64,000 nucleotides of DNA, from IMG/VR virus record IMGVR_UViG_3300025126_000016, positions 10,264-74,263 of that record, one strand, 5' to 3'. How positions within the stretch are numbered: position 1 is the stretch's first letter; every line of letters begins with the position of its first letter. The DNA comes from a virus. Its lineage: Duplodnaviria > Caudoviricetes. The position numbers and the translations under genes were made by a program. The notes beneath the pieces were generated by a model. It ran no database searches, had not been told where the DNA came from, and saw only the letters and a list, made by a program, of their open reading frames with translations. Positions 1,185 through 47,225 of the stretch are shown one piece after another.

Positions 1185-4100
1185 TACGAGCCACCTGTTG
1201 AATTAGTTTCTTAGTCACACCGCCCTTTAGCACATCATTACTGAATGTTGCAAGGACATCATTCGGTCCCATCGTAGGCTTCTCTTCAGGAGCCACGACG
1301 TACACGTTGACGGGAGGAGCAGCACTGGCCTGCATGATGTTCATCTGAGGACCGGCATCCTTGAGAGCGTGAGCGCCTCTGGCATTGATAGCGTCAAGGA
1401 AGCCCTTACCGATACTCTGAGCAGCGGGGCGACGGATTACATACTCACCTTGAGCCGCGTTAATAAGTGTGCTGTCCCGAGTAGGCAGACCACTGCTGAT
1501 GGAACCACCACCATAGTAGCCCTTTGGTTGCTTCGGAGCAGGGACTTCCCCGCCTCTCCAGAGACCCCACGAGGCCAAGCTATCAGTAGCACTACCGAAC
1601 TTTGAGGACAGTCCACTCATGTTAGGCCCACCAATGGCACCAGCCAGAATAGAGAAGAACTGGTTGGCCAGCGCGACAGCTACCATTTCGAGCATCGCAT
1701 CGATGATGGTTGCAGCCATGTTCTTGAAGGCACCGCCGAGGGTTACGGTCCCGCTGACAACATCGGAGAAGAAGCCCTTGAAAGAAGAATGAAGGGCACG
1801 AAGCGGCTGGTCAAGGTTCTTGATAAGCTCCTGACCTAGGCCATCTGCGGCACCAATCTCGAGCTTCATAGCTTCCAGAGCCATCCTCATTCCACCGCCG
1901 AAAGTCATCGGGACTTCTCGAAGCACTCCATAGCTTGCCATGAGTGCTGCGTTAGCATCGATCAGGTCTTCGGTTCTGGTGTCAATGTTGCCGAGTTCTT
2001 CTTCGATTCCTCTGAGCGTGATTCGGCTTTCTTCCAGTTGGCCTCTGACCACAATGGCTTCGCCCTCTTTCACACCTTCCTGTGCAACGAACTCTTCCAT
2101 TCGGCTGAGGTCTTGTTCGATACGGCGCTTCTGCTCTGCAACCTCGGCAGCAAGCTCGGTAAGCTGACGGATACGTTCTTCATTAGCAGCCACACTGGCA
2201 AACTGATTGTTTCTTTCAGCAATGTCAGAACGGTTCTGCACCACCGTCTTCATGTATTCAGGGGTGTTCTCATTCCCGAGAGGATTGTTCAGTCCTTGAA
2301 CACGAGCCTGTGCGATAGCAAGAGCTTGCTCTGTTGGTCGCATAGCCTGCTTGAAATCATCGTCGATAGCTTCAACGCTTGTATCGATGAAGTTCTTAAG
2401 CACAGCCGCGAGGGTATCAGCCATTCTCTTGACTTCTTCGACCCGCATCTGTTCGATCTTACGACCGGCGGTAGCCATCATTTTGGCTCGCTGTTCCCGA
2501 GAAGGGTTAAGAGCTTCAATCTGTTGCATGGATAGCTCGGCTTCGCCCGTCAGCCAGCTGTCAAGTTGATCGTCCAGATCATCCAGTACGTCAGGAAGGT
2601 CATCTAGCTTAGGTGCATTCTTGAAAGTATCAAGAGTATTATTGTATAGCTCCTGACGGTACTCAAGTTCTTCCTTCGCAATGCGAGCATCGATACGTTC
2701 TAGTTCTTCCTCTCTGCGACGAGCTTCTCGTTCGGCTTTGCTGGCTGCTCTTTCAGCATCTTTAGCAGCTTCCTTGTCAACCGGAGGAGCCATGCGGTTG
2801 CGAGCAGCACGGGTGCTGGCACGAGCCTGCTCAAGGAGCGTAGCGGCATAAGGATTGTCGGCAACCTCTGATTCAATCTCGTCGTAGCGACGTTCTCTTT
2901 GGGTAAACTGCGCCTCTAGCTGCGCTCGGTTCATTCCACCAGAGTTTCCCTGCGAGGCGGCACGAGTTGAACGACCCGTATCTTCCTGCATAGAACGGAT
3001 CAGTTCTTGACCCTGGTCCGTCAGGGCGAACTCGGCAGTTCCCAAGCGTTCTGTATAAAGATCAGTATCCTGTCTAGCTCTAGTATAGCTATCAAGCGCA
3101 GTAGTCAGGCTGGCATAAGTCGTAGGATAACGCTGCTGCAGGGCAGGGTTTTTAAGTAGTAGCGAGTGAGCCTGCTGAAGACTTGACGTAGTATTACTAC
3201 GCATTAGGGTCTGCAGTCTTTCAGTGTCCCTCACTAGTTGTGGATTTTCTCTACGAGTTCTCGGAGTAAAGCTTACTCTGCTATCCCTACTAAATTTTCC
3301 GCTTACTCCACCAAGTTCTTGCAGAGCATTCTTGCGTTCCATATCGGCCTGAGCCAGTGCGGTCTGGGCAAGATTACGTAGCGTTTCCTGAGCCTTGCGA
3401 TCAAGGTTCACCAGTGACTGAATGAGTCCTGCGATTCCGCCTTGAGTCTTACTGAACTCATCACGAAGACCGGGGAAGCGAGAAGAAAGCTGGCTAACCG
3501 CAGAAGAAACACCGGTGGTTGTTTCGTTGAGATTACCGTTTGCTCCTGCGAGTTCTTCCTCACGCATGATCAGCTTCTGAGTTTCATCACGAAGACTCAG
3601 CTGATCCATTTCGAGCGAGGCCATCTGGGCAGAGGTGTCCTTGAGAGCGGTGGTAACATCCCCCAAGCTGTCACCCATCTGTGCCGCCCGGACTGCTGCT
3701 TCTTCTGCGGAGTAGCCTGCCGCTTCGAAAGAAGCTGCTGCCTCTTTCAGACTCACGCTTGAGTAATTGGCTTCTTGAGTAAGCAGCCCGAAAGCCTTTA
3801 GAGGTCTAGTTATTAGCTCGGCAATTGCGCCGATTGAAACAACGATACCTTCAAGCAGTACTAGCAACAGCTTTAGCACGGGAATAAGATTCTCACCGAT
3901 CCCTGCTCCGAACTCAGCCATAGTGTTCCATAGGCGCTGCCAACGGGCTTCGAGTGAATCGACACGAACGGCAGCAGCTTCTTGTGCTGCCCCTTCCTTT
4001 TCAGAAAGGACTAGGAGACGTTCGGTGTTTTCAATGTTGCGGCTAGCGGCAACATATGCAGCGGCAGCACGAGTTTCCATAGCACCATAGGCTTCGAAAC

Positions 4101-5928
4101 CTGCTGAGCGAAGGCGGCGAAGAACTTCATTCAGCCCCAAAACCTTAACGTCGATATCCGAGGTGCTTAAACCAATTCTTTGAAGCTGATCGATTAGCTT
4201 CTGCGAAGGGTTCATAAGATCGACCAGCATCTGACGAAGACCTGTGGCAGCGGTCGAGCCTCTAACACCGGCGTCGGCCAGCGAGGCGGTCGTGGCAACG
4301 AGTTCTTCAATCGTTACGTTGTTGGCAGCAGCGGTGTTACCAAGGTACTGCAAAGATTGCTGAACTTGGCTAACGCCCAGCTTCGATTCGTTCAGTGTCG
4401 TAACCAAGATATCGGTCACACGGCTGGCTTCACTCGCAGACATCTGGAAGGCACCCAGGGCCGAGGTAAGAATGTCAACGGACTCGGCGGGAGTCGAGCC
4501 GGAAGCGGCAGAAAGATTAACGACGCTCTGTAGCATCATCTTAAGTTCTTCACCGGCGAAACCTGCCTGAGCGATAATAGTGGCTGACTTGGTAAGCTCC
4601 ATCACACTATCAGCACTGTTCTTCGAGACCTCGAAGATGCCTGCGCTCAGTCGTTCCATTTCGGTAGTCGTGGAAGCAGACACGGCTTGCAACTGAGCAA
4701 GAGCATCTTCAAACTGAATAGCAAAGCTGATACCCTGTTGGATGCTGGAAATCAGGCCATAGATGGCCCCTGCAGCGACAGCGTAACTGGCGACACGACC
4801 GACGAGGGCACCTGCTCCGTAGGCTCCCCCACCTTTTTCAGTAAGGAAGTTACCTGGAGCAGCCTTTATTCCTGAGAAGAAACCACCCTTATATTCAGGG
4901 GTCTTGGGTGCAGCACTCTGCTCCCGATTACGCATCGCAATCGTCTCACCAATCTCTCTCTGGAGAAGCTTGTAGCGAGCGATAAGCTGATCAATACGAG
5001 CAGCGTTCTGCTGTTCAACCGGCTTGGCTAGCTCGGCGTTAAGCTGTCTCTTGGCTGTGATCAGGAAGTTGGTTTGGTTGGCGAGGCGCTGCTGTGAGTC
5101 GGCGATGCGGCGATAAGCCGAAGCTTCCCCGATAAGCTCGCGGTTCTTGAGACTACGTTCACCCTTGCGAGTAGCATCCGCAAGCAGAGCTTCTCTCTGC
5201 AACCGGGAATTAGTCAGAATCTGACGACCCTCTTCGCGCAGGGCTTCAATATTCAGACGAGTCTTTGCTTCGATCTTTTCTCTGGCACGAAGCTGATCCC
5301 CCATTGCGCCGAGTGCTTGTCTGGTGCTAGCGATCTGAGTAGAGTAGTCAGTCTTGAAACCGCCAGTTGCAAATGCTTTGGCGTTGGCCTTATCCAGCCG
5401 CTCAAACTGGTCAAGCATAGGAGCGAAGGCCTTTTGACCATCGCGGCTAAGCATCTGGATACGAGTGCGATAGTCGTCCGCAGTTCTGCTTAACTTAGCG
5501 TAAGCTTGAGCATTGTTTTGTAGATTGGCGTAGGCTCTCTGGTGAAAATCAGTAACCTCAACGCCGCGACGAGCCATCTTACCAAAGCTGGTATCTAAGT
5601 CTCGGATACGACCGCGAAGAACATCCACGGAGCGACCGTACTGATTGGTGGCGTTTCCTAATTCTGCGTAGGCACGGGCACGTTTACCGAGGGCCTGCAG
5701 AGATTCGGCCCCACCCATTCTTCTATTGGCATTGAAATTGGCTACAGCATCCAAGTTCTTGGAGGTCATCGCCAATGTTTTAATCTGTTGGGCAGCGACA
5801 GCACCAGCCTTATTCATCTTAGCAATAGTGTTATCCAAGCGCTTGTTCAGAACAGACAGCGCGTTTTCCATCCCCTTCGGGGTTAAATTAATGCCTACTT
5901 GAGCATTGATTTCATTATTAGCTGCCAT
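1177..5928 (-). CDS. Tail tape measure protein
   Basis: 1583 aa, Ala-rich helical; TP901-type core (FEDALAQLQAVS...GSTAATGLRQML); C-terminal GGG...GEYVIR motif. Confidence 0.95.
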   Translation of the reverse strand: MAANNEINAQVGINLTPKGMENALSVLNKRLDNTIAKMNKAGAVAAQQIKTLAMTSKNLDAVANFNANRRMGGAESLQALGKRARAYAELGNATNQYGRSVDVLRGRIRDLDTSFGKMARRGVEVTDFHQRAYANLQNNAQAYAKLSRTADDYRTRIQMLSRDGQKAFAPMLDQFERLDKANAKAFATGGFKTDYSTQIASTRQALGAMGDQLRAREKIEAKTRLNIEALREEGRQILTNSRLQREALLADATRKGERSLKNRELIGEASAYRRIADSQQRLANQTNFLITAKRQLNAELAKPVEQQNAARIDQLIARYKLLQREIGETIAMRNREQSAAPKTPEYKGGFFSGIKAAPGNFLTEKGGGAYGAGALVGRVASYAVAAGAIYGLISSIQQGISFAIQFEDALAQLQAVSASTTTEMERLSAGIFEVSKNSADSVMELTKSATIIAQAGFAGEELKMMLQSVVNLSAASGSTPAESVDILTSALGAFQMSASEASRVTDILVTTLNESKLGVSQVQQSLQYLGNTAAANNVTIEELVATTASLADAGVRGSTAATGLRQMLVDLMNPSQKLIDQLQRIGLSTSDIDVKVLGLNEVLRRLRSAGFEAYGAMETRAAAAYVAASRNIENTERLLVLSEKEGAAQEAAAVRVDSLEARWQRLWNTMAEFGAGIGENLIPVLKLLLVLLEGIVVSIGAIAELITRPLKAFGLLTQEANYSSVSLKEAAASFEAAGYSAEEAAVRAAQMGDSLGDVTTALKDTSAQMASLEMDQLSLRDETQKLIMREEELAGANGNLNETTTGVSSAVSQLSSRFPGLRDEFSKTQGGIAGLIQSLVNLDRKAQETLRNLAQTALAQADMERKNALQELGGVSGKFSRDSRVSFTPRTRRENPQLVRDTERLQTLMRSNTTSSLQQAHSLLLKNPALQQRYPTTYASLTTALDSYTRARQDTDLYTERLGTAEFALTDQGQELIRSMQEDTGRSTRAASQGNSGGMNRAQLEAQFTQRERRYDEIESEVADNPYAATLLEQARASTRAARNRMAPPVDKEAAKDAERAASKAEREARRREEELERIDARIAKEELEYRQELYNNTLDTFKNAPKLDDLPDVLDDLDDQLDSWLTGEAELSMQQIEALNPSREQRAKMMATAGRKIEQMRVEEVKRMADTLAAVLKNFIDTSVEAIDDDFKQAMRPTEQALAIAQARVQGLNNPLGNENTPEYMKTVVQNRSDIAERNNQFASVAANEERIRQLTELAAEVAEQKRRIEQDLSRMEEFVAQEGVKEGEAIVVRGQLEESRITLRGIEEELGNIDTRTEDLIDANAALMASYGVLREVPMTFGGGMRMALEAMKLEIGAADGLGQELIKNLDQPLRALHSSFKGFFSDVVSGTVTLGGAFKNMAATIIDAMLEMVAVALANQFFSILAGAIGGPNMSGLSSKFGSATDSLASWGLWRGGEVPAPKQPKGYYGGGSISSGLPTRDSTLINAAQGEYVIRRPAAQSIGKGFLDAINARGAHALKDAGPQMNIMQASAAPPVNVYVVAPEEKPTMGPNDVLATFSNDVLKGGVTKKLIQQVARNG

Positions 5929-23801: not shown

Positions 23802-23887
23802 TGGTGCGTCTGGGAGGACTCGAACCTCCAAAGGTATCTGTGTTTGAAACAGTGCCGTATTCCAGTTCCGACTTAGCCCACAGACGC
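23802..23887 (-). tRNA. trnL: tRNA-Leu(CAA), expanded D region and shortened variable arm
   Basis: GCGTCTG/CAGACGC acceptor, A73-CCA, loop TTCAAAC, T-arm GGAGG-TTCGAGT-CCTCC. Confidence 0.8.
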
Positions 23888-23892
23888 GAAAA

Positions 23893-23978
23893 TGGTAGGA
23901 GCGGCGAGACTCGAACTCGCAAAGGTCACCGCTTCTAAGGCGGCGGGGTATTCCATTTTCCACTTAGCCCACGCTCCC
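23893..23978 (-). tRNA. trnL: tRNA-Leu(TAG), expanded D region and shortened variable arm
   Basis: GGGAGCG/CGCTCCT acceptor, loop CTTAGAA, A73-CCA. Confidence 0.85.
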
Positions 23979-40038: not shown

Positions 40039-40278
40039 ATGACCATCACTCGCGTATTCAAACCTCTGGAAGAAAAGACCAGAGAAGGACTGATTGAACA
40101 AATCAAGCGGATGCAGGACCGCGCTCATATGCAGAGAGCCACGCAAAACGCAGTGGAAAAGGCGTACCTGACCCGTCTGGCCAATTATCGTAAGGCTAAA
40201 GCTCTGGCCAATGAGAGAGCAGACAGGGCCGAGGCCGCAATGCGAGCCATGCTCGACAACTTTGGAGATATCGGATGA
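40039..40278 (+). CDS. Hypothetical coiled-coil protein
   Basis: GGAGG RBS before MTITRV. Confidence 0.6.
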   Translation: MTITRVFKPLEEKTREGLIEQIKRMQDRAHMQRATQNAVEKAYLTRLANYRKAKALANERADRAEAAMRAMLDNFGDIG

Positions 40279-41399
40279 TCGTACACCCCACAATCTACAA
40301 GTATGACACGAAAGGAAATTGCCGTGTCTGGCGAATGGAAATCGACGGAGCAAAATATAGGACCGTGGCGGGTATCGAAGGGGGAAGTTTGGTTGAATCT
40401 AAGTGGACCACTGCTAAGGGTAAGAACGTGGGACGAGCGAACGAAACTTCGCCCGAAGAACAGGCCGAGCTTGAGGTAGCCAGCAAGTACGAGAACAAGC
40501 TGAGCCGAGAGTATTCTGAAACGAAGGAAGCTGCCAAGTCTGGTGCTCACTTCTTCAAGCCGATGCTTGCCCAACCCTACAAGGGCCTACCCCTGTGGCA
40601 GGACCTTTATGTTCAGCCTAAGTTGGATGGAATGCGCTGCATCGCTACGAAGGATGGACTATTCTCTCGTCAGGGTAAGCCAATCCTTGGCTGTCCTCAC
40701 ATCTTTGAGGCGCTGGAAGCAGCCTTCAAGAAAGACCCGATGCTTATCATCGACGGTGAGCTTTACAACCATCACCTCAAGGACGACTTCCCTCGTCTCA
40801 TGAGCCTGTGCAAGAAGCAGGACCCAACTGACGAGCAGCTTGCTGAATCCGCAGAGCTTGTGGAATACTACGTATATGATTGCCCATCCAAAGCAGACTT
40901 CAAGTTTAGCACCAGGATGGTGTTTCTCTCACAAGCATTACAAGATGCTGGCATCAATACTGTAGATGATTATGGTCCTATTGTTCCGACCGCTACTTTG
41001 AAGATTACTTCGGACGACCCCGTGAAATTCTTCAATGACTTCCACGGCAAGTGCGTGGCCGCAGGACATGAAGGTTCGATGCTTCGACTCGACAAGCCTT
41101 ATGAACAGAAGCGGAGCAAGCATCTACTCAAGCGAAAGGATTTTCTGGATGATGAATTCGAAGTGGTTCGACTCGTTGAGGGCGAAGGCAACTGGTCTGG
41201 TGCTGTCAAGAGCGTACTCTGCCGAGCCAAGAACGGAAAAGAGTTTGGCTCAGGAGTTAAGGGAAGCCGAGAGTATGCCGAGTCTCTCATGGGAAGAGAT
41301 TTTAGCACTGCCAAGGTCCGATATTTTGAACTAACACCAGACGGTGTGCCGCGATTCGGCATCTGTCTTGAACTTTATGAAGGAGAACGTGATGATTAA
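40275..41399 (+). CDS. ATP-dependent DNA ligase
   Basis: KPMLA, QPKLDGMRC, IIDGELY, EGSML, KRSKHLLKRKDF, OB domain GVPRF. Confidence 0.93.
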   Translation: MIVHPTIYKYDTKGNCRVWRMEIDGAKYRTVAGIEGGSLVESKWTTAKGKNVGRANETSPEEQAELEVASKYENKLSREYSETKEAAKSGAHFFKPMLAQPYKGLPLWQDLYVQPKLDGMRCIATKDGLFSRQGKPILGCPHIFEALEAAFKKDPMLIIDGELYNHHLKDDFPRLMSLCKKQDPTDEQLAESAELVEYYVYDCPSKADFKFSTRMVFLSQALQDAGINTVDDYGPIVPTATLKITSDDPVKFFNDFHGKCVAAGHEGSMLRLDKPYEQKRSKHLLKRKDFLDDEFEVVRLVEGEGNWSGAVKSVLCRAKNGKEFGSGVKGSREYAESLMGRDFSTAKVRYFELTPDGVPRFGICLELYEGERDD

Positions 41400-42020: not shown

Positions 42021-42590
42021 CACTTGGAAACAGGTGCTGGAAGATATTCAGAAAGTGTGTCCCTCTGCCGTACTGGCAGGGGGCGCACTCCGAGACCTAG
42101 TGTTTGATGTCGAGGTCAAGGACTTGGATATCTTCATCGAAGCTGGCAATGAGAACGAAGCTTGGGGCAGTTTCAAAGCCTTGGGCGGGAAGATTCCTGA
42201 GCCTCAGAAAATTATGGGTGGCTTGTCCTGCATTGATGAGAGGGTGTCTACCCTCAGAGTATGCAGGAAGTTATCCTAGTCGAGGACTACGCAGGAGACA
42301 ACCCAACAGGTATCCCTATACAGTTGATCTTCGTTAACTGGAAAACGGAGCGCAGTCACGAACGGTTCGACATCGGCATCTGCCGTATCAGTTACGATGG
42401 AAGGGATGTCAGTATCTCCCGTGATTTCGAGCAAGATTCCTCGGATCAAGTGATCAACATCAGGCGGTGCGAAAATAAGTGGATGCTTGGTGCCACTATC
42501 AACAGGTATCTGAGATTGAAGAAGAAATATCCCGATTGGGAGATAAAATTGGATGGAGTAGACCTCAAGGAGGTTGACACTCATATCTGA
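42004..42590 (+). pseudogene. tRNA nucleotidyltransferase/poly(A) polymerase head-domain-like protein split into two overlapping frames
   Basis: GGALRD...KDLDIF in 42004-42279; RFDIGICRI and RYLRLKKKY in 42261-42590; -1 frame open from 42240. Confidence 0.7.
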
Positions 42591-42602
42591 TAGGCGTATA
42601 TG
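42574..42602 (+). promoter_or_regulatory. Sigma70-like promoter for tmRNA operon
   Basis: TTGACA-17 nt-TATATG. Confidence 0.75.
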
Positions 42603-42608
42603 CGCCGA

Positions 42609-42938
42609 ACCAGTCGCTTGAAGCGGCTTTGAAGTGAGGGCAAGACGCGGGGGCAGTACCCGCCGCCTCCACCAGATTGACTGATATGAGACCAATTGGA
42701 AAGTCTCTGCTAGGTCAAACCGGCGGGACGCAGGTTCAATTCCTGCTTTCAGTCAATCTGATGGGGGCGAACCAGGATCGATTGCCAAGCGGACGAGTTG
42801 TTAGGCTGTGAGCGTGGCTGCTTTGAAAAGCCAAGTTTGATAAATGCAAACGACAATGACATGCCAGTCATGAAAATGGCAATTGCGGCCTAATTAGGCA
42901 AAGCGGGGTCCAAAGGAACCTGTCAACAGAATCCCTTT
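42609..42938 (+). ncRNA. ssrA: Circularly permuted two-piece tmRNA (acceptor piece to 42674, coding piece from 42763), tag ANDNDMPVMKMAIAA
   Basis: GCGGG-GGCAGTA-CCCGC T-arm, CGCCTCC-ACCA; GGGGGCG with G3.U70; tag frame 42846-42893; alpha-type 3' element GCGGGGTCC...GGAACCTGTCAACAGAATCC. Confidence 0.92.
42680..42753 (+). ncRNA. tRNA-like cloverleaf within the tmRNA intervening segment
   Basis: ACTGATA/TTTCAGT stem, D-arm AGAC-CAATTGGAAA-GTCT, T-arm GCAGG-TTCAATT-CCTGC; imperfect anticodon arm, no CCA. Confidence 0.75.
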
Positions 42939-42966
42939 TAGTTTAACCAAGAGAAGGAATACCATT

Positions 42967-43113
42967 ATGAATCGTAAGTACGCAGTCCTTGGAGCAGCCG
43001 CTCTGGCCTTTGCCGTAGCAGCTTGTGAACCTGCTGAGGAGCAGGAAGAAGAAGTAGTAGTTGAAGCCGGTGGACCGGTTGACGCTGATGGAGCAGACGA
43101 AAATGCGAACTAA
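42967..43113 (+). CDS. Small acidic lipoprotein (48 aa)
   Basis: Hand translation MNRKYAVLGAAALAFAVAACEPAEEQEEEVVVEAGGPVDADGADENAN; lipobox VAAC; AAGGA RBS. Confidence 0.75.
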   Translation: MNRKYAVLGAAALAFAVAACEPAEEQEEEVVVEAGGPVDADGADENAN

Positions 43114-43579
43114 GATTGCCCTCATCGCTGGTGCCCTCGCCCTTGGCGTAGCTGCACCGGCCTCGGCCAATGAGTTTGGTGGCCTGTATGCCTCGGCAAC
43201 TGCCGGTGTGCAGGACGTAACTCAGGTTCCGACTGCTGACGACATCGTTTACGGTGCCAACGCCGGTGTCAACATTCCTCTGGGCGATGCAATCGTCGGC
43301 CTTGAGGCAACTGCTGACAACGTCTTCGAAGACAGCCGCGAAATCGGAGCCTCGGCCCGTCTCGGTTATACCTTCGACGACGTAATGCTGTATGGTGAAG
43401 CAGGCTACACCAACTACCGTGACGTATTCAGTCGTGAACTGGATGGTCTGCGTGTAGGTGCTGGCCTCGAATACAACATCAGCAACAACACTTTTGTGTC
43501 GGCTGAATACAGGTACACGGACTTCGAAGCTGGCGTTGGAAAACACGCTGGACTTGTTGGCCTCGGTATCCGCTTTTAA
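43103..43579 (+). CDS. Outer-membrane beta-barrel protein (OmpA/OmpW-like transmembrane domain)
   Basis: Signal peptide to APASA; amphipathic strands ARLGY, LYGEAGY, VGAGLEY, AEYRYTDF; C-terminal Phe. Confidence 0.88.
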   Translation: MRTKIALIAGALALGVAAPASANEFGGLYASATAGVQDVTQVPTADDIVYGANAGVNIPLGDAIVGLEATADNVFEDSREIGASARLGYTFDDVMLYGEAGYTNYRDVFSRELDGLRVGAGLEYNISNNTFVSAEYRYTDFEAGVGKHAGLVGLGIRF

Positions 43580-43601
43580 GTCGGCAACGACTTGTGTGTG
43601 G

Positions 43602-43631
43602 GAAAGGGGGCTTTTCAGCCCCCTTTCTTTT
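43602..43631 (+). terminator. Intrinsic terminator after OMP gene
   Basis: GAAAGGGGGCT/AGCCCCCTTTC stem plus T-tract. Confidence 0.8.
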
Positions 43632-43638
43632 GTCCAAT

Positions 43639-43720
43639 ACCCTCGTAACCAGTTCGGTCTTCTACACCGCTATCTGTAATGGAGTTGAAAATGTGGGTTC
43701 GAGTCGCACCTAGGGTTCCA
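43639..43720 (+). ncRNA. tRNA-like RNA with undetermined anticodon
   Basis: ACCCTCG/CTAGGGT acceptor, T-arm GTGGG-TTCGAGT-CGCAC, U73-CCA; core region non-canonical. Confidence 0.65.
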
Positions 43721-43743
43721 TTCTAATCTAAAAGGAAATATCT

Positions 43744-43914
43744 ATGAAGTTTGTTCTAGTCTGTGTCGCAGAAGAAGATGAAACCGGTCACGTTACCCAT
43801 GTACAGGACAGCGGAGGTTACGGTTACATGCTCTCAAACGGAGACGTTCTCGAAATCGACCTAGCCAAGGGTGAAAGTATCGACATCATTCATAGTGACG
43901 AAGAAGTAAATTAA
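43744..43914 (+). CDS. Small acidic protein (56 aa) ending 1 nt before tRNA-Thr
   Basis: MKFVLVCVAEEDETG...DEEVN, AAGGAAAT RBS. Confidence 0.65.
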   Translation: MKFVLVCVAEEDETGHVTHVQDSGGYGYMLSNGDVLEIDLAKGESIDIIHSDEEVN

Positions 43915-43915
43915 C

Positions 43916-43991
43916 GCCGGATTAGCTCAGATGGCAGAGCAGCTGATTTGTAACCAGAAGGTCGTGGGTTCGATGCCTACATCCGGCACCA
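43916..43991 (+). tRNA. trnT: tRNA-Thr(TGT)
   Basis: Canonical cloverleaf, loop TTTGTAA, CCA. Confidence 0.93.
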
Positions 43992-43995
43992 GATT

Positions 43996-44070
43996 GCGGA
44001 AGTAGCTCAGTGGTAGAGCAGGTGGTTGAAGTTCACCGTGTCAGCGGTTCGATTCCATTCTTCTGCACCA
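43996..44070 (+). tRNA. trnF: tRNA-Phe(GAA)
   Basis: Loop TTGAAGT, A73-CCA. Confidence 0.85.
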
Positions 44071-44075
44071 GATAC

Positions 44076-44150
44076 GGGCCTGTAGCTTAATGGGAGAGCA
44101 GCATCCTTGCAAGATGTTAGGTGAGAGTTCGAATCTCTCTAGGTCCACCA
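44076..44150 (+). tRNA. trnA: tRNA-Ala(TGC)
   Basis: G3.U70, loop CTTGCAA, CCA. Confidence 0.93.
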
Positions 44151-44155
44151 GACAT

Positions 44156-44233
44156 GGCCCCGAGGTCCGAAGAGTCGAGGCCTCGCACTGTCTATGCGAG
44201 TTCAAGCGGGTTCGAGTCCCGCCGGGGTCGCCA
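44156..44233 (+). tRNA. trnD: tRNA-Asp(GTC)
   Basis: Loop CTGTCTA, G73-CCA. Confidence 0.88.
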
Positions 44234-44240
44234 TGTTTGA

Positions 44241-44313
44241 GCGGGTGTGGCTATGCTAGCCAGCTGGCCTTCCAAGCCATGCCAAGAGGGTTGGATTCCC
44301 TCCATCCGCTCCA
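44241..44313 (+). tRNA. trnG: tRNA-Gly(TCC), reduced D-loop
   Basis: Loop CTTCCAA, U73-CCA; D-arm GGCTA-TGC-TAGCC; T-loop TTGGATT. Confidence 0.8.
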
Positions 44314-44317
44314 ATGT

Positions 44318-44392
44318 TGCACGGTCGTCTAATCGGTAAGACGCTCGACTCTGACTCCTGAAACGTAGGTTCGAACCCTGCCCGTGCATCCA
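44318..44392 (+). tRNA. trnQ: tRNA-Gln(CTG)
   Basis: U1-A72, loop CTCTGAC, CCA. Confidence 0.85.
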
Positions 44393-44393
44393 C

Positions 44394-44467
44394 TGCCCCT
44401 TCGTCTAGTGGTAGGACCGGAGCCTTTGAAGCTTTTAACGCTGGTTCGAATCAAGCAGGGGCATCCA
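44394..44467 (+). tRNA. trnQ: tRNA-Gln(TTG)
   Basis: U1-A72, loop CTTTGAA, CCA. Confidence 0.85.
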
Positions 44468-44530
44468 GATTTTTACGAAAATTTTTCAGAAGATTTTGGG
44501 TCGAGTTTTAGAAAGGCAAAAGTTAGAGGG

Positions 44531-44559
44531 TTGACACCTAAAAAGACCTCGTCTATATG
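44531..44559 (+). promoter_or_regulatory. Sigma70-like promoter for leader plus Met/Asn/Pro/Trp/His tRNA operon
   Basis: TTGACA-17 nt-TATATG preceded by an AT-rich tract. Confidence 0.78.
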
Positions 44560-44635
44560 ACCCTCCACGGGCCGAGGGGATTCCCATCTCCTTAATGCGG
44601 TTTAACCACCCTCGGCCCACCTATTGGAGTTAGAA

Positions 44636-44722
44636 ATGCGTTACATGAATGTAAATCATTGGCGACCCAATACACACGCATGGGTGCGACATCCCATGCG
44701 TGAACAAGCTGTCGGCGGCTAA
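44636..44722 (+). CDS. Leader peptide MRYMNVNHWRPNTHAWVRHPMREQAVGG (candidate attenuator uORF)
   Basis: GGAG RBS at 44626; 28 codons, 13 Met/Asn/His/Trp/Pro; stop inside hairpin 22 nt before tRNA-Met. Confidence 0.7.
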   Translation: MRYMNVNHWRPNTHAWVRHPMREQAVGG

Positions 44723-44744
44723 CTAACTCCCGCCGATACTCTGT

Positions 44745-44820
44745 TGCAGAGTAGAGAAGCGGCATCTCACCACCCTCATAAGGTCGGAAACCGTGGGTTC
44801 GAGTCCCACCTCTGCAACCA
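44745..44820 (+). tRNA. trnM: tRNA-Met(CAT), initiator-like D-arm
   Basis: Loop CTCATAA, TGCAGAG/CTCTGCA acceptor, A73-CCA. Confidence 0.85.
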
Positions 44821-44837
44821 TTTCCCAAAATATATGT

Positions 44838-44912
44838 TGATGCGTAGCATAATGGCAATGTACGTCACTGTTAATGACGGGGATGCAGGTTCGAGTCCTG
44901 CCGTATCAGCCA
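44838..44912 (+). tRNA. trnN: tRNA-Asn(GTT)
   Basis: U1-A72, loop CTGTTAA, G73-CCA. Confidence 0.9.
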
Positions 44913-44913
44913 T

Positions 44914-44991
44914 CTAGGAGTAGCTCAGTCTGGCCAGAGCATCCCGTTTGGGGCGGGAGGGCCGAAGGTTCGAATCCTTCCTTCTAGACCA
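44914..44991 (+). tRNA. trnP: tRNA-Pro(TGG)
   Basis: C1-G72, loop TTTGGGG, A73-CCA. Confidence 0.92.
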
Positions 44992-44992
44992 C

Positions 44993-45067
44993 AGGTCGGA
45001 GCATACGGGTTATGCCTCTTGGACTCCAAATCCGAGAGAGAGGGTTCGATTCCCTCCCCTCCTGCCA
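44993..45067 (+). tRNA. trnW: tRNA-Trp(CCA)
   Basis: Loop CTCCAAA, G73-CCA; two acceptor-stem mismatches. Confidence 0.85.
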
Positions 45068-45074
45068 TTTTCTT

Positions 45075-45281
45075 CGAGCCTTTTCCGAGGGGCTGGGAGT
45101 GCCAGAGTAGCCTTGTAGACCAGAGGAGTAGTTATCCTGCTGCCGAATAGGTTCTGGTTCGTTGGTTGTAGACCGACATTGGAATGACGAGTAGAGCCTA
45201 AGAGCCTAACTAGCTTGGAAGCGAACTCGGGGTTCAGTGCCGCCAACGAGGTAAGACTCCCAGTCACGCGGAAAGGGCTTG
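45075..45281 (+). ncRNA. Unassigned structured RNA (about 210 nt) between tRNA-Trp and tRNA-His
   Basis: Closing stems GAGCCTTTTCCG/CGGAAAGGGCTT and GGCTGGGAGT/ACTCCCAGTC; inner helices ACCAGA/TCTGGT and TCGTTGG/CCAACGA; no useful ORF. Confidence 0.65.
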
Positions 45282-45291
45282 ATCACACGGT

Positions 45292-45363
45292 GTTGTTGGT
45301 GTTAATGGTAGCATGGCCGGATGTGACCCGGCAGGTGAGGGTTCGATTCCCCACTTCAACCCA
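45292..45363 (+). tRNA. trnH: tRNA-His(GTG), G-1:C73 type, imperfect acceptor
   Basis: GCCGG-ATGTGAC-CCGGC anticodon arm, T-loop TTCGATT, C73-CCA. Confidence 0.78.
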
Positions 45364-45386
45364 ATCTTTAATCTGAAAGGAATCCT

Positions 45387-45545
45387 ATGAAACACGTTCT
45401 GATCCTGAACCCGAGTGAGGACGGGAGCTACGTCGGGGAGGCTAAGGTGCCTCTGGATAATCCCGCAGGTTTCAATGTCTCTCTGAAAGTGTGCAAGGCC
45501 ACGAAGAAAGCTATCGTGGTGTTAGACGAGAAGGTGAACCGGTGA
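45387..45545 (+). CDS. Hypothetical protein (52 aa)
   Basis: MKHVLILNPSEDG..., AAAGGA RBS. Confidence 0.65.
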   Translation: MKHVLILNPSEDGSYVGEAKVPLDNPAGFNVSLKVCKATKKAIVVLDEKVNR

Positions 45546-45818
45546 TGTTCATAATCGCAACTGACGATCTTGAGTATTACATCCCTTGGTCCCGCAAAAC
45601 TTGTGGACACACAGCCGTAGATGTGGCAAAGAAAGGTAGCCGGGGGCAACGTGCCTCGGCTATTTGATAATGAGCTTAGTGCAAAACTGGCTCTAGGCAA
45701 GTGGCTGTCTGGGCCACTCAGAGGAGTCTTTGAGGAAGACTACGGATGGTACCCTGAATCTGACACTGACCCCAATCGAAAGATAGAATGGGAGGGCAAG
45801 CTTGCCCCCGAGAAATAG
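45545..45818 (+). pseudogene. Small phage protein interrupted by two apparent +1 indels
   Basis: MFIIATDDL / SYYIPWSRKTCGHT / GGNVPRLFDNELSAKLALGKWLSG lie in three successive frames. Confidence 0.4.
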
Positions 45819-45842
45819 AACTTAATCTAATCTAAAGGAAAT

Positions 45843-47225
45843 ATGATGATTGCCCTTCGTGACTATCAGGTAAACGACCTCGCTGTTGCGATCAAGAATC
45901 CCCGCAGCTTTAACTTCTCTGAACCAGGCACTGGTAAGACGCCAGTGTTCTGTGCCCTGTCGTGGTACTACTGGACGAAGAAGGGCAAGAAGACTATCAT
46001 CGTTCAGCCCAACCACCTTCGTAACAAGAATCGTCTCGAAGTTATTCGCTTCTCGGGATTCGAACCCCATGAAGTGAAAGTGATTGAGCGTCTGGACGAG
46101 ACCCTCGGACCTCGCAAGCGCAAGAGTGTGCCCGAGGCCAACCAACAGACTGGTTACATCAACTACATCGACGATCCTGAAATCAAAGTGTTCGTCGTTG
46201 GCTTTACGTTCCTGAAAAACTATTGGAAAGAGCTAGTAGAGAAGCACCCCGAGATTGATCTGGTAGTGATCGACGAAGGCCATGAAGGCTACAAGACCTA
46301 CAACAGTAAGGCCAGCCGTGAACTCTATGCTCTCATGGATAGGACGGAAGGCTTTTACTATTGCACGGGTACGCCTATTGATGGTCGCCTCGACTCTTGC
46401 TTCACTGCTATCCATATTGTCTGCCCTCAATACTACGGCAGCTACCTTGGATTCAGGGCGCAGCATGCTGGTTTCATCGACGACTACGACAAGGTGGTGT
46501 TCTGGCAGAACGAGGAGAAAGTGACAGAAATCTTCAATCGTCACGGTGTCATTCATACGTGGGAAGAAGTCCACGGTGAAGAGAAGCGCCATGTTGAAAT
46601 CGTGGACGACATCAAGATGAATGAGAAGATGCTGGAAGCTTATACCGAGTTCGAAGAAATGGCCTGTGTCGAGCTTGAGGGTATGTTCCTCGACGGAAGT
46701 AATCCCGGAGTTGCAACGATGCGAGCGAGGCAGATCATTAACTGCCCACATATCTTTGACATCAAGGAACGCACAGCCAAGCATGATTACCTTGAAGGGT
46801 TGGCTCAGCCGGGTATGGTTGTGTTCGGGTCGATGCCTGAGGAAGTTGAAGCCAACGCCGAAATCCTGCGAGAGCTAGGATTGTCGGTCGGGGTAATGCA
46901 CGGAGGGGTGAGCAATGCCAAGCGCGTAGAGATTGATCGTGCCTACGTAGCTGGTGAGCTTGACGTTATCTGTGCAACCCCGGCCGTGGCCGCGACTGGT
47001 TGGAACTGGCAGCGGACCAAGATCATCGTGTTCACTTCGCTGTCCTACAGCGACTCCAATGTTGAACAGGCTATCAAGCGAGGAGAGCGAGAGGCTCGGG
47101 ATGAACATCTGCAAGTCTACTTCCTTGAGTATCTAAAGAGTGTGGACCAGAAGGTCCGTAAGATCGTGGTGAAGAAAGAAAACCTGAGCCATACGGTTAT
47201 GGAAAATGTGAAAGGATTGAGCTAA
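45843..47225 (+). CDS. SF2 (SNF2-like) DNA helicase
   Basis: EPGTGKT Walker A, VIDEGH, TGTP, ATGWNWQ and EQAIKRGER motifs. Confidence 0.92.
   Translation: MMIALRDYQVNDLAVAIKNPRSFNFSEPGTGKTPVFCALSWYYWTKKGKKTIIVQPNHLRNKNRLEVIRFSGFEPHEVKVIERLDETLGPRKRKSVPEANQQTGYINYIDDPEIKVFVVGFTFLKNYWKELVEKHPEIDLVVIDEGHEGYKTYNSKASRELYALMDRTEGFYYCTGTPIDGRLDSCFTAIHIVCPQYYGSYLGFRAQHAGFIDDYDKVVFWQNEEKVTEIFNRHGVIHTWEEVHGEEKRHVEIVDDIKMNEKMLEAYTEFEEMACVELEGMFLDGSNPGVATMRARQIINCPHIFDIKERTAKHDYLEGLAQPGMVVFGSMPEEVEANAEILRELGLSVGVMHGGVSNAKRVEIDRAYVAGELDVICATPAVAATGWNWQRTKIIVFTSLSYSDSNVEQAIKRGEREARDEHLQVYFLEYLKSVDQKVRKIVVKKENLSHTVMENVKGLS

Follow-up and report, generated by a model that had tools for sequence, protein, structure and literature searches.

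A structured non-coding RNA between tRNA-Trp and tRNA-His in a phage RNA island and its candidate family

Non-coding RNAs beside phage tRNA genes

RNAs C and D of phage T4, also called species 1 and 2 RNAs, were described some 50 years ago and are released from a tRNA precursor transcript; ROOL and GOLLD came to light more recently. The T4 genome annotates such a 'small, stable RNA' beside tRNA-Arg. ROOL (RF03087) and GOLLD (RF02032) are phage and prophage RNAs that are often found near tRNA islands and possess conserved kissing loops, and neither their protein partner nor their function is known (10.1101/2024.12.08.627333).

The locus described here lies in a stretch of 64,000 nucleotides (hereafter the window), which corresponds to bases 10264-74263 of the 74-kb IMG/VR virus record of an uncultivated phage. 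The public runs carrying this stretch are aquifer DNA metagenomes only (a series of them), and no strain variants were seen across four DNA runs, in which the contigs were identical and the depth low. The original prediction, which was made from the sequence of the window, had placed an unassigned multi-branched RNA in the gap between a tRNA-Trp and a tRNA-His gene, and ARAGORN found both tRNAs where it had put them. We confirm that positions 45074-45282 of the + strand are a genuine non-coding RNA gene. The gap between the two tRNAs is 221 nt long, and the structured RNA fills about 209 nt of it.

42570-45362, + strand: RNA island, a permuted alpha-type tmRNA plus twelve tRNA genes, all on the + strand
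44531-44559, + strand: promoter-like site TTGACA-N17-TATATG that precedes the Met-Asn-Pro-Trp-(RNA)-His operon, read directly
44993-45067, + strand: tRNA-Trp (CCA), upstream neighbour, called by ARAGORN
45074-45282, + strand: structured RNA gene, about 209 nt measured between the outer ends of its closing helix P1, based on the fold z-score and on a match of the covariance model R1 (see below) at 45076-45282 with 253.6 bits
45289-45362, + strand: tRNA-His (GUG), downstream neighbour, called by ARAGORN

The twelve tRNA genes comprise eleven ARAGORN calls and one Rfam tRNA match (44241-44310). The operon around the RNA has the order Met-Asn-Pro-Trp-(RNA)-His, and in the window the 3' strand of P1 is followed by UCACAC and then by tRNA-His. 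The TTGACA-N17-TATATG sequence at 44531-44559 may function as a promoter, and its hexamers and their 17-nt spacing are also present in a marine sister lineage (L002); it is absent from the scanner list because the scanner rule requires a T at the end of the second hexamer. No terminator-like sites were found within 43500-46000.

We made several further observations on the island and its surroundings. The region 44531-44744 runs from the promoter-like site through a stem-loop and a Shine-Dalgarno-like GGAG to a small ORF (ATG at 44637, stop near 44722) located just before tRNA-Met. All of these leader elements are kept in L002:1349-1600, and when the two peptides are compared, the C-terminal part (RPNT.AWVRHPMRE) is conserved while the N-terminal part is not. 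The tmRNA gene (42570-42940, 100.6 bits) is of the permuted, two-piece alphaproteobacterial type, which suggests an alphaproteobacterial host. The Rfam tRNA match at 44241-44310 (31.8 bits), located between tRNA-Asp and tRNA-Gln, has no ARAGORN call and may be an unusual or degenerate extra tRNA. Two adjoining weak matches to the tRNA model (30.5 and 34.6 bits, each spanning 83 nt) occur on the - strand at 23805-23978, far from the main array and also without an ARAGORN call. The tRNA-His at 45289-45362 reaches 22 bits with the Rfam tRNA model, under the 29-bit cut-off, and its acceptor stem has, by eye, two U.U mismatches that recur in three lineages (the window; L002:2131-2204; L003:3426-3500). 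Among the window, its relative L095 and L002, identity is 96-100% for tRNA-His and only 68-75% for the adjoining tRNA-Trp. An ATP-dependent DNA-ligase-like gene is found at 40275-41399.

When 45068-45288 was compared with Rfam 15 by cmscan, no match was found at the gathering thresholds, and with permissive filters and E<=10 the sole overlap was the snoRNA sR60 (15 bits, E 5.5). The relatives L322-L325 also gave nothing over the RNA in Rfam 15, down to E<=10. The families left unmatched include tmRNA, riboswitches, YrlA, ROOL, GOLLD, raiA and HEARO, and since the Rfam 15 search gave no family, the earlier reading that this is not a 6S, SRP, RNase P or Y RNA or a self-cleaving ribozyme holds. 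Neither ARAGORN nor Rfam detected a tRNA-like match inside the gap RNA, no ORF is common in frame or strand among the family members, and a full-text literature search for the clamp sequence (see below) returned no relevant paper.

The T4 genes rnaC and rnaD resemble our RNA in being non-coding, in lying on the tRNA strand and in adjoining phage tRNA genes. However, they are shorter (139 and 119 nt), have other folds and lack the clamp and the three-way-junction core, and rnaC bears a tRNA-like T arm. With filters off, R1 scored at most 1.8 bits on rnaC and at most 0.9 bits on rnaD, and its maximum anywhere in the 6-kb T4 region (69000-75000) was 6.8 bits. The T4 RNAs C and D are analogues, not homologues, of the window RNA. 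ROOL and GOLLD differ from it in being 3-4 times larger and in having a different secondary structure, and the window RNA and its relatives have no Rfam match to them. The window's subgroup, with a closing stem, two arms with complementary 7-nt loops and conserved junction strands, is similar in topology only to three-way-junction aptamers with a loop-loop contact (the purine riboswitch architecture); the window RNA is much larger, has no Rfam match and is located between tRNAs rather than in a 5' UTR. It also differs from riboswitch- or terminator-type cis regulators, as it has no expression platform and no terminator follows P1. A bacterial Y RNA acting with Ro (Rsr) was rejected, since PF05731 (TROVE) is absent from the window's record and from the records of three relatives, and there is no YrlA match.

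Sister phages with and without the RNA

Sister phages were recovered using the neighbouring helicase gene (45843-47225) as an anchor, and most of the relatives found in this way lack the RNA. L099 carries an RNA identical to that of the window and L101 one that differs by a single base, while the copy in L095 is 82% identical and occupies the same site between tRNA-Trp and tRNA-His. In the marine L002 lineage, a deeply diverged version of 200 nt is found between the same two tRNAs, and only its ends are seen by BLAST to be in common with the window RNA. This version is identical in L046, L090-L094 and L096, and its folding energy is unexceptional (z -0.03). In the sister phages L003 and L089, tRNA-Trp is directly followed by tRNA-His with no RNA between them. 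The RNA is therefore an accessory insert that is not needed for processing as such.

The L095 sequence (a 42-kb Logan contig) is a mosaic phage in the region 2017-4380. Its helicase clusters at 90% identity or more with that of L002 and its tRNA-His is identical to that of L002, while its RNA and the small ORFs following tRNA-His resemble those of the window, and it has no RtcB. This organization suggests that recombination has taken place inside the tRNA island. A further hint that the region is mobile and variable comes from L089, which lacks the RNA and harbors an ORF for a LAGLIDADG-type homing endonuclease (weak Pfam hit) just upstream of the helicase (L089:4197-4691). In several sister phages, an RtcB RNA ligase gene (PF01139) is located between the tRNA array and the helicase (L002/L090:2221-3733, L086:506-1738). 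An obligate link of the RNA with RtcB was rejected because the window's record is without RtcB, although RtcB follows tRNA-His in the L002 lineage.

Fold, covariation and wider family

The + strand of the RNA gene folds at -89.8 kcal/mol with a z-score of -4.06, and none of 200 shuffles was as good, while the - strand had a z-score of -1.88. The + strand folds better than the - strand because of G.U pairs in P1 and P2. The overall architecture consists of a closing stem of 14 bp plus 10 bp, followed by a three-way junction.

45074-45087, + strand: 5' strand of P1, 14 bp with 45269-45282; the outer part covaries and the inner CCG/CGG is invariant
45088-45090, + strand: internal loop AGG, opposite ACG at 45266-45268 (A.G, G-C, G.A), identical in 6 of 7 aligned rows
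45091-45100, + strand: 5' strand of P2, GGCUGG plus GAGU, 10 bp with 45256-45265; the first six pairs, one of them G.U, do not vary, and the last four covary
45101-45158, + strand: P3 arm, with base GCCAGA/UCUGGU and a variable interior, from alignment and fold
45129-45134, + strand: P3 loop bases UAGUUA, complementary to 45207-45212
45159-45165, + strand: 5' strand of P4, UCGUUGG, which pairs with CCAACGA at 45243-45249; 7 bp in the five core members
45166-45176, + strand: asymmetric junction strand UUGUAGACCGA, family consensus UUGUAG.CCGA
45174-45242, + strand: distal P4 arm, a long irregular hairpin with tip loop CUAACUA (45206-45212); helices 6-8 all paired
45207-45212, + strand: P4 apical loop bases UAACUA, complementary to 45129-45134
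45250-45255, + strand: junction strand J4/2, GGUAAG, from alignment A7 (see below)

The 12-bp closing helix of the original prediction is present and extends to the 14 bp of P1, and the 10-bp and UCGUUGG/CCAACGA helices that it had described are P2 and P4. It had also proposed an ACCAGA/UCUGGU helix; the comparative data favour instead the pairing of GCCAGA (45101-45106) with UCUGGU (45153-45158), since GCCAGA abuts P2 in all relatives and L095 is without ACCAGA. Both of the repeated words to which it had drawn attention occur in the window, with differing conservation: the second copy of TTGTAGACC (45166-45174) falls within the conserved UUGUAG.CCGA strand, but the first is not positionally conserved, and GAGCCTAA is found twice in the window but is not conserved in L095. 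A reading of CCUAAG/CUUGG as an 11-nt tetraloop receptor was dropped, as L095 has CCAAAG.

A hand-drawn structure of 66 pairs that includes the loop-loop helix was placed on an alignment of the RNAs of the window, L101 and L095 (alignment A3). When the window was compared with L095, all 66 pairs were retained (100% paired), with 6 double and 5 single compatible changes and no broken pair, in contrast to controls in which the partners were slid by 1-3 columns, where pairing was 32-47% with at most one double change. The covariance model R1 was built from A3 only, that is, from the window's subgroup, and gave 52 bits on the L002 version. Among the loci retrieved with a loose pattern, GGCTGG-N{150,180}-CCAGTCACGCGG, R1 singled out three more, and no other pattern added members.

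L258:574-366: between tRNA-Trp and tRNA-Ile (R1 92 bits)
L269:678-468: in an array of 20 tRNAs, flanked by tRNA-Ser and tRNA-Gly, with a Trp gene just upstream (R1 62 bits)
L267:6456-6672: between genes of a replication module, with a tmRNA at a distance of 4.5 kb (R1 28 bits)

These loci are on IMG/VR phage contigs unrelated to the window, two of the three lie inside tRNA arrays, and tblastx of the loci against the window found no protein similarity. The L267 RNA is away from any tRNA and shares only the clamp with the family, and we regard it as a relative that is distant or partial; the L267 genome also has a tmRNA, of the standard type. Fold z-scores were -6.85, -5.34 and -6.75 for the three unrelated loci and -3.1 for one of the other relatives. 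The family comprises six distinct sequences in about four lineages. On the strength of these sequence comparisons, we consider the window RNA to be a member of a real family that is outside Rfam 15, a new family of orphan structured RNAs in phage tRNA islands. A blastn search of 50,697 phage records (cultured phages) with the window, L258 and L269 RNAs gave no match. Motif scans with GGCTGGGAGNGCCAGA and CTCCCAGTCACGCGG gave chance matches only, as did GGCTGGGAG-N{140,170}-CCAGTCACG in both viral and genome contigs (for the genome contigs, among the matches listed) and CGAGGGGCTGG-N-CCAGTCAC, also with gap ranges of 181-211 and 119-149, chance matches being judged by manual P2 complementarity or by an absent R1 match.

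A second alignment of seven rows (A7) was fitted to R1, which flatters its pair counts: both-side changes occur in 36 of 60 pairs, and 97.1% of the cells pair, against 34-45% when slid. The outlying members, which were absent from R1 training, supply most of the double changes, and the observed values were reached in none of 500 shuffles. The strong covariation in both A3 and A7 bears out the multi-branched RNA of the original prediction.

In helix 1 of A7, both-side changes are found in 11 of 23 pairs, and the internal loop after P1 is AGG in all rows except L267, which has AGU. P2 is 10 bp long in the window, L095, L002, L258 and L269, and the pair that ends it changes from U-A in the window to A-U in L095 and to C-G in L002. 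P3 directly abuts P2; its base GCC...GGU is invariant in the family, and in the window it ends in the apical hairpin AGGA-GUAGUUA-UCCU (45124-45138). P4 (helix 4) starts immediately after P3 with no linker, and 6 of its 7 pairs covary. The UUGUAG.CCGA junction strand is present in the window, L095, L002, L258 and L269 in A7. In the distal P4 arm, an apical stem pair that is C-G in the window is A-U in L095, and L258 retains the same arm with covarying helices. The junction is closed by J4/2, which is rich in purines and reads GGUAAG in the window, L095 and L258, GGCGAG in L269 and CGCAAG in L002. The invariant clamp reads CCG-AGG-GGCUGG / CCAGUC-ACG-CGG, and the window has the whole set of features that define the family, namely the clamp, a 10-bp P2, the GCC..GGU base of P3, a 7-bp P4, UUGUAG.CCGA and GGUAAG; it has this set in common with the other core members, L095, L002, L258 and L269. 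Phages that are unrelated to one another have kept about 30 nucleotides that are unpaired or invariant. Since helix lengths are fixed between conserved loops, a defined three-dimensional core is implied. In such a core, the AGG/ACG loop, which lies one helical turn under the junction, might receive the loop that ends P4, and the long distal P4 arm could then run back up to the tip of P3.

Invariant internal-loop and junction nucleotides beside covarying helices are the usual signature of a ribozyme or of a ligand-binding RNA, and self-cleaving ribozymes are known between phage genes, which provides a precedent for a new self-cleaving or otherwise catalytic RNA that aids the cutting of the tRNA operon transcript. 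We find this improbable, as no known ribozyme model matches at E<=10 and the cuts that are needed are already supplied by RNase P. The hammerhead, in its type III topology, was rejected in particular: the CUGANGA/GAAA core is absent from the junction, P3 and P4 abut, J4/2 is GGUAAG, and there is no Rfam match.

The presence of the RNA in some phages and its absence from close relatives, as well as closing helices that resemble inverted repeats, would suit a small mobile DNA element with terminal inverted repeats, and 221 nt is about three tRNA lengths, as expected if some three tRNA genes had decayed in the gap. The evidence that this is not an RNA gene at all is nevertheless heavily outweighed, and we regard the idea as very improbable indeed. 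The fold is strand-specific through its G.U pairs, the internal helices covary, the outer part of P1 has another sequence in each member but still pairs, and no tRNA-like match is found inside the stretch. A MITE or other inverted-repeat element was rejected on similar grounds, since there is a single copy in the 74-kb record, the P1 termini differ from member to member, and no target-site duplication is visible when filled and empty sites are compared.

Six Watson-Crick pairs could form between the P3 loop, (G/C)UAGUUA, and the P4 tip, CUAACUA, of the window and L095. This six-base complement is unchanged in L095 even though both supporting stems have changed: the P3 interior is 37% identical between the two RNAs, yet 6 of the 7 nucleotides of its loop are identical, and identity over the P4 domain is 89%. 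L002 has CUACUAA as its P3 loop and UAGUG near the tip of its long arm; the resulting UACUA:UAGUG helix differs from that of the window by in-register swaps of G-C to C-G and of U-A to A-U. By a rough estimate, two random 7-nt loops would match this well in about 2-5 cases per 1000. A loop-loop contact, within one molecule or between molecules, is thus well supported by the sequences for the window's subgroup. L258 and L269 have a GAAG tetraloop at the tip of P4 and are without the complementary loop pair; their P3 loop, NAACUUG, matches J4/2 (UAAGUU or CGAGUU) or the P4/J strand. A family-wide pseudoknot is not claimed, as the P3 loop would pair with the P4 loop in one set of RNAs (window, L095, L002) and with J4/2 or the P4/J strand in another (L258, L269).

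If the tip loops paired between molecules, the RNA alone could assemble into dimers or larger homo-oligomers like those of the much larger ROOL and GOLLD, which are also encoded in phages, often near tRNA islands, and are joined by kissing loops. Indeed, UAGUUA and UAACUA are perfectly complementary and lie at the tips of arms that differ greatly in length (P3 with about 25 nt per strand, P4 with about 40-47), so that a side-by-side kiss within one molecule is less obvious. One ROOL/GOLLD kissing loop was initially taken for a tertiary contact from covariation (10.1101/2024.12.08.627333), and RNAs of less than 200 nt can also build cages and filaments (10.64898/2026.07.01.735769). However, L258 and L269 are without the complementary loop pair, and a bend at the conserved asymmetric loop could return the long arm to the short one within a single molecule; we therefore consider assembly by the RNA alone unlikely.

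Possible roles in the tRNA operon

The best explanation of the whole, and one that we think rather likely, is that of a stable RNA of the tRNA operon that is freed by tRNA processing and acts in trans. The RNA would be transcribed within the Met-Asn-Pro-Trp-(RNA)-His operon. RNase P, cutting at the 5' end of tRNA-His, 6 nt past P1, would set the 3' end of the RNA, and the 3' maturation of tRNA-Trp would set its 5' end, about 6 nt ahead of P1. The 14-bp P1 would then shield both ends from exonucleases, leaving a stable RNA of about 210 nt. Co-transcription and excision fit the locus because it is flanked by tRNAs on the same strand and no terminator-like sites occur within 43500-46000. In the window's subgroup, the tips of the two arms would pair through six bases in a compact three-way junction, and the invariant core could offer a surface on which a factor of tRNA or translation metabolism, from the host or the phage, would bind.

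The setting of the other members is similar. In the window, L095, L002, L258 and L269, the RNA is on the tRNA strand and its P1 ends 3-6 nt ahead of the tRNA that follows. An upstream tRNA-Trp is also found in L095, L002 and L258, and the downstream tRNA differs between members (His, Ile or Gly). Such a tight fit between tRNAs, with linkers of 3-6 nt, could also be that of a structured spacer acting in cis, which would insulate the tRNAs from misfolding or tune the order of the RNase P and RNase E cuts and leave an excised piece with no role of its own, and the closing helices alone would be enough for this. It is doubtful that this is the whole role of the RNA, since some 30 conserved nucleotides and helices of fixed length (10 bp in P2, 7 bp in P4) far exceed the needs of a spacer. 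Moreover, sister phages do without the RNA, its L267 relative is away from any tRNA, and the downstream tRNA varies.

That the RNA is dispensable in sister phages, is followed by different tRNAs and has about 30 invariant nucleotides argues for a role in trans with a specific partner rather than for a spacer. We put forward such a trans-acting binding role as a tentative part of the explanation. No protein neighbour was found to be shared across the lineages carrying the RNA, and given the lack of such a companion gene, a partner encoded by the phage would be less likely than a host factor or than action by the RNA alone.

Phage tRNA islands are increasingly viewed as counter-measures to host attack on translation, and to our knowledge the non-tRNA RNAs found inside them are almost entirely unexplained. 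The family described here is small and well defined, with a length of about 210 nt, a sharply conserved core, covarying helices and a loop-loop contact that can be tested. Its recurrence in unrelated phages, together with its presence or absence among close relatives, is what one would expect if it were an accessory gene related to conflict. It is possible, though we hold this only loosely, that the window RNA is the founding example of a class of compact phage RNAs of about 200 nt in which the invariant clamp and junction are the active or recognition site. If so, the RNA would not be a passive by-product of the tRNA operon, and it might be a decoy or inhibitor that shields phage translation from host defences targeting tRNA or RNA, a self-assembling RNA like ROOL and GOLLD, or a new ribozyme. 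The shortness of the RNA suits chemical probing, cryo-EM and pull-downs, and the family would thus provide a concrete handle on the role of such RNAs.
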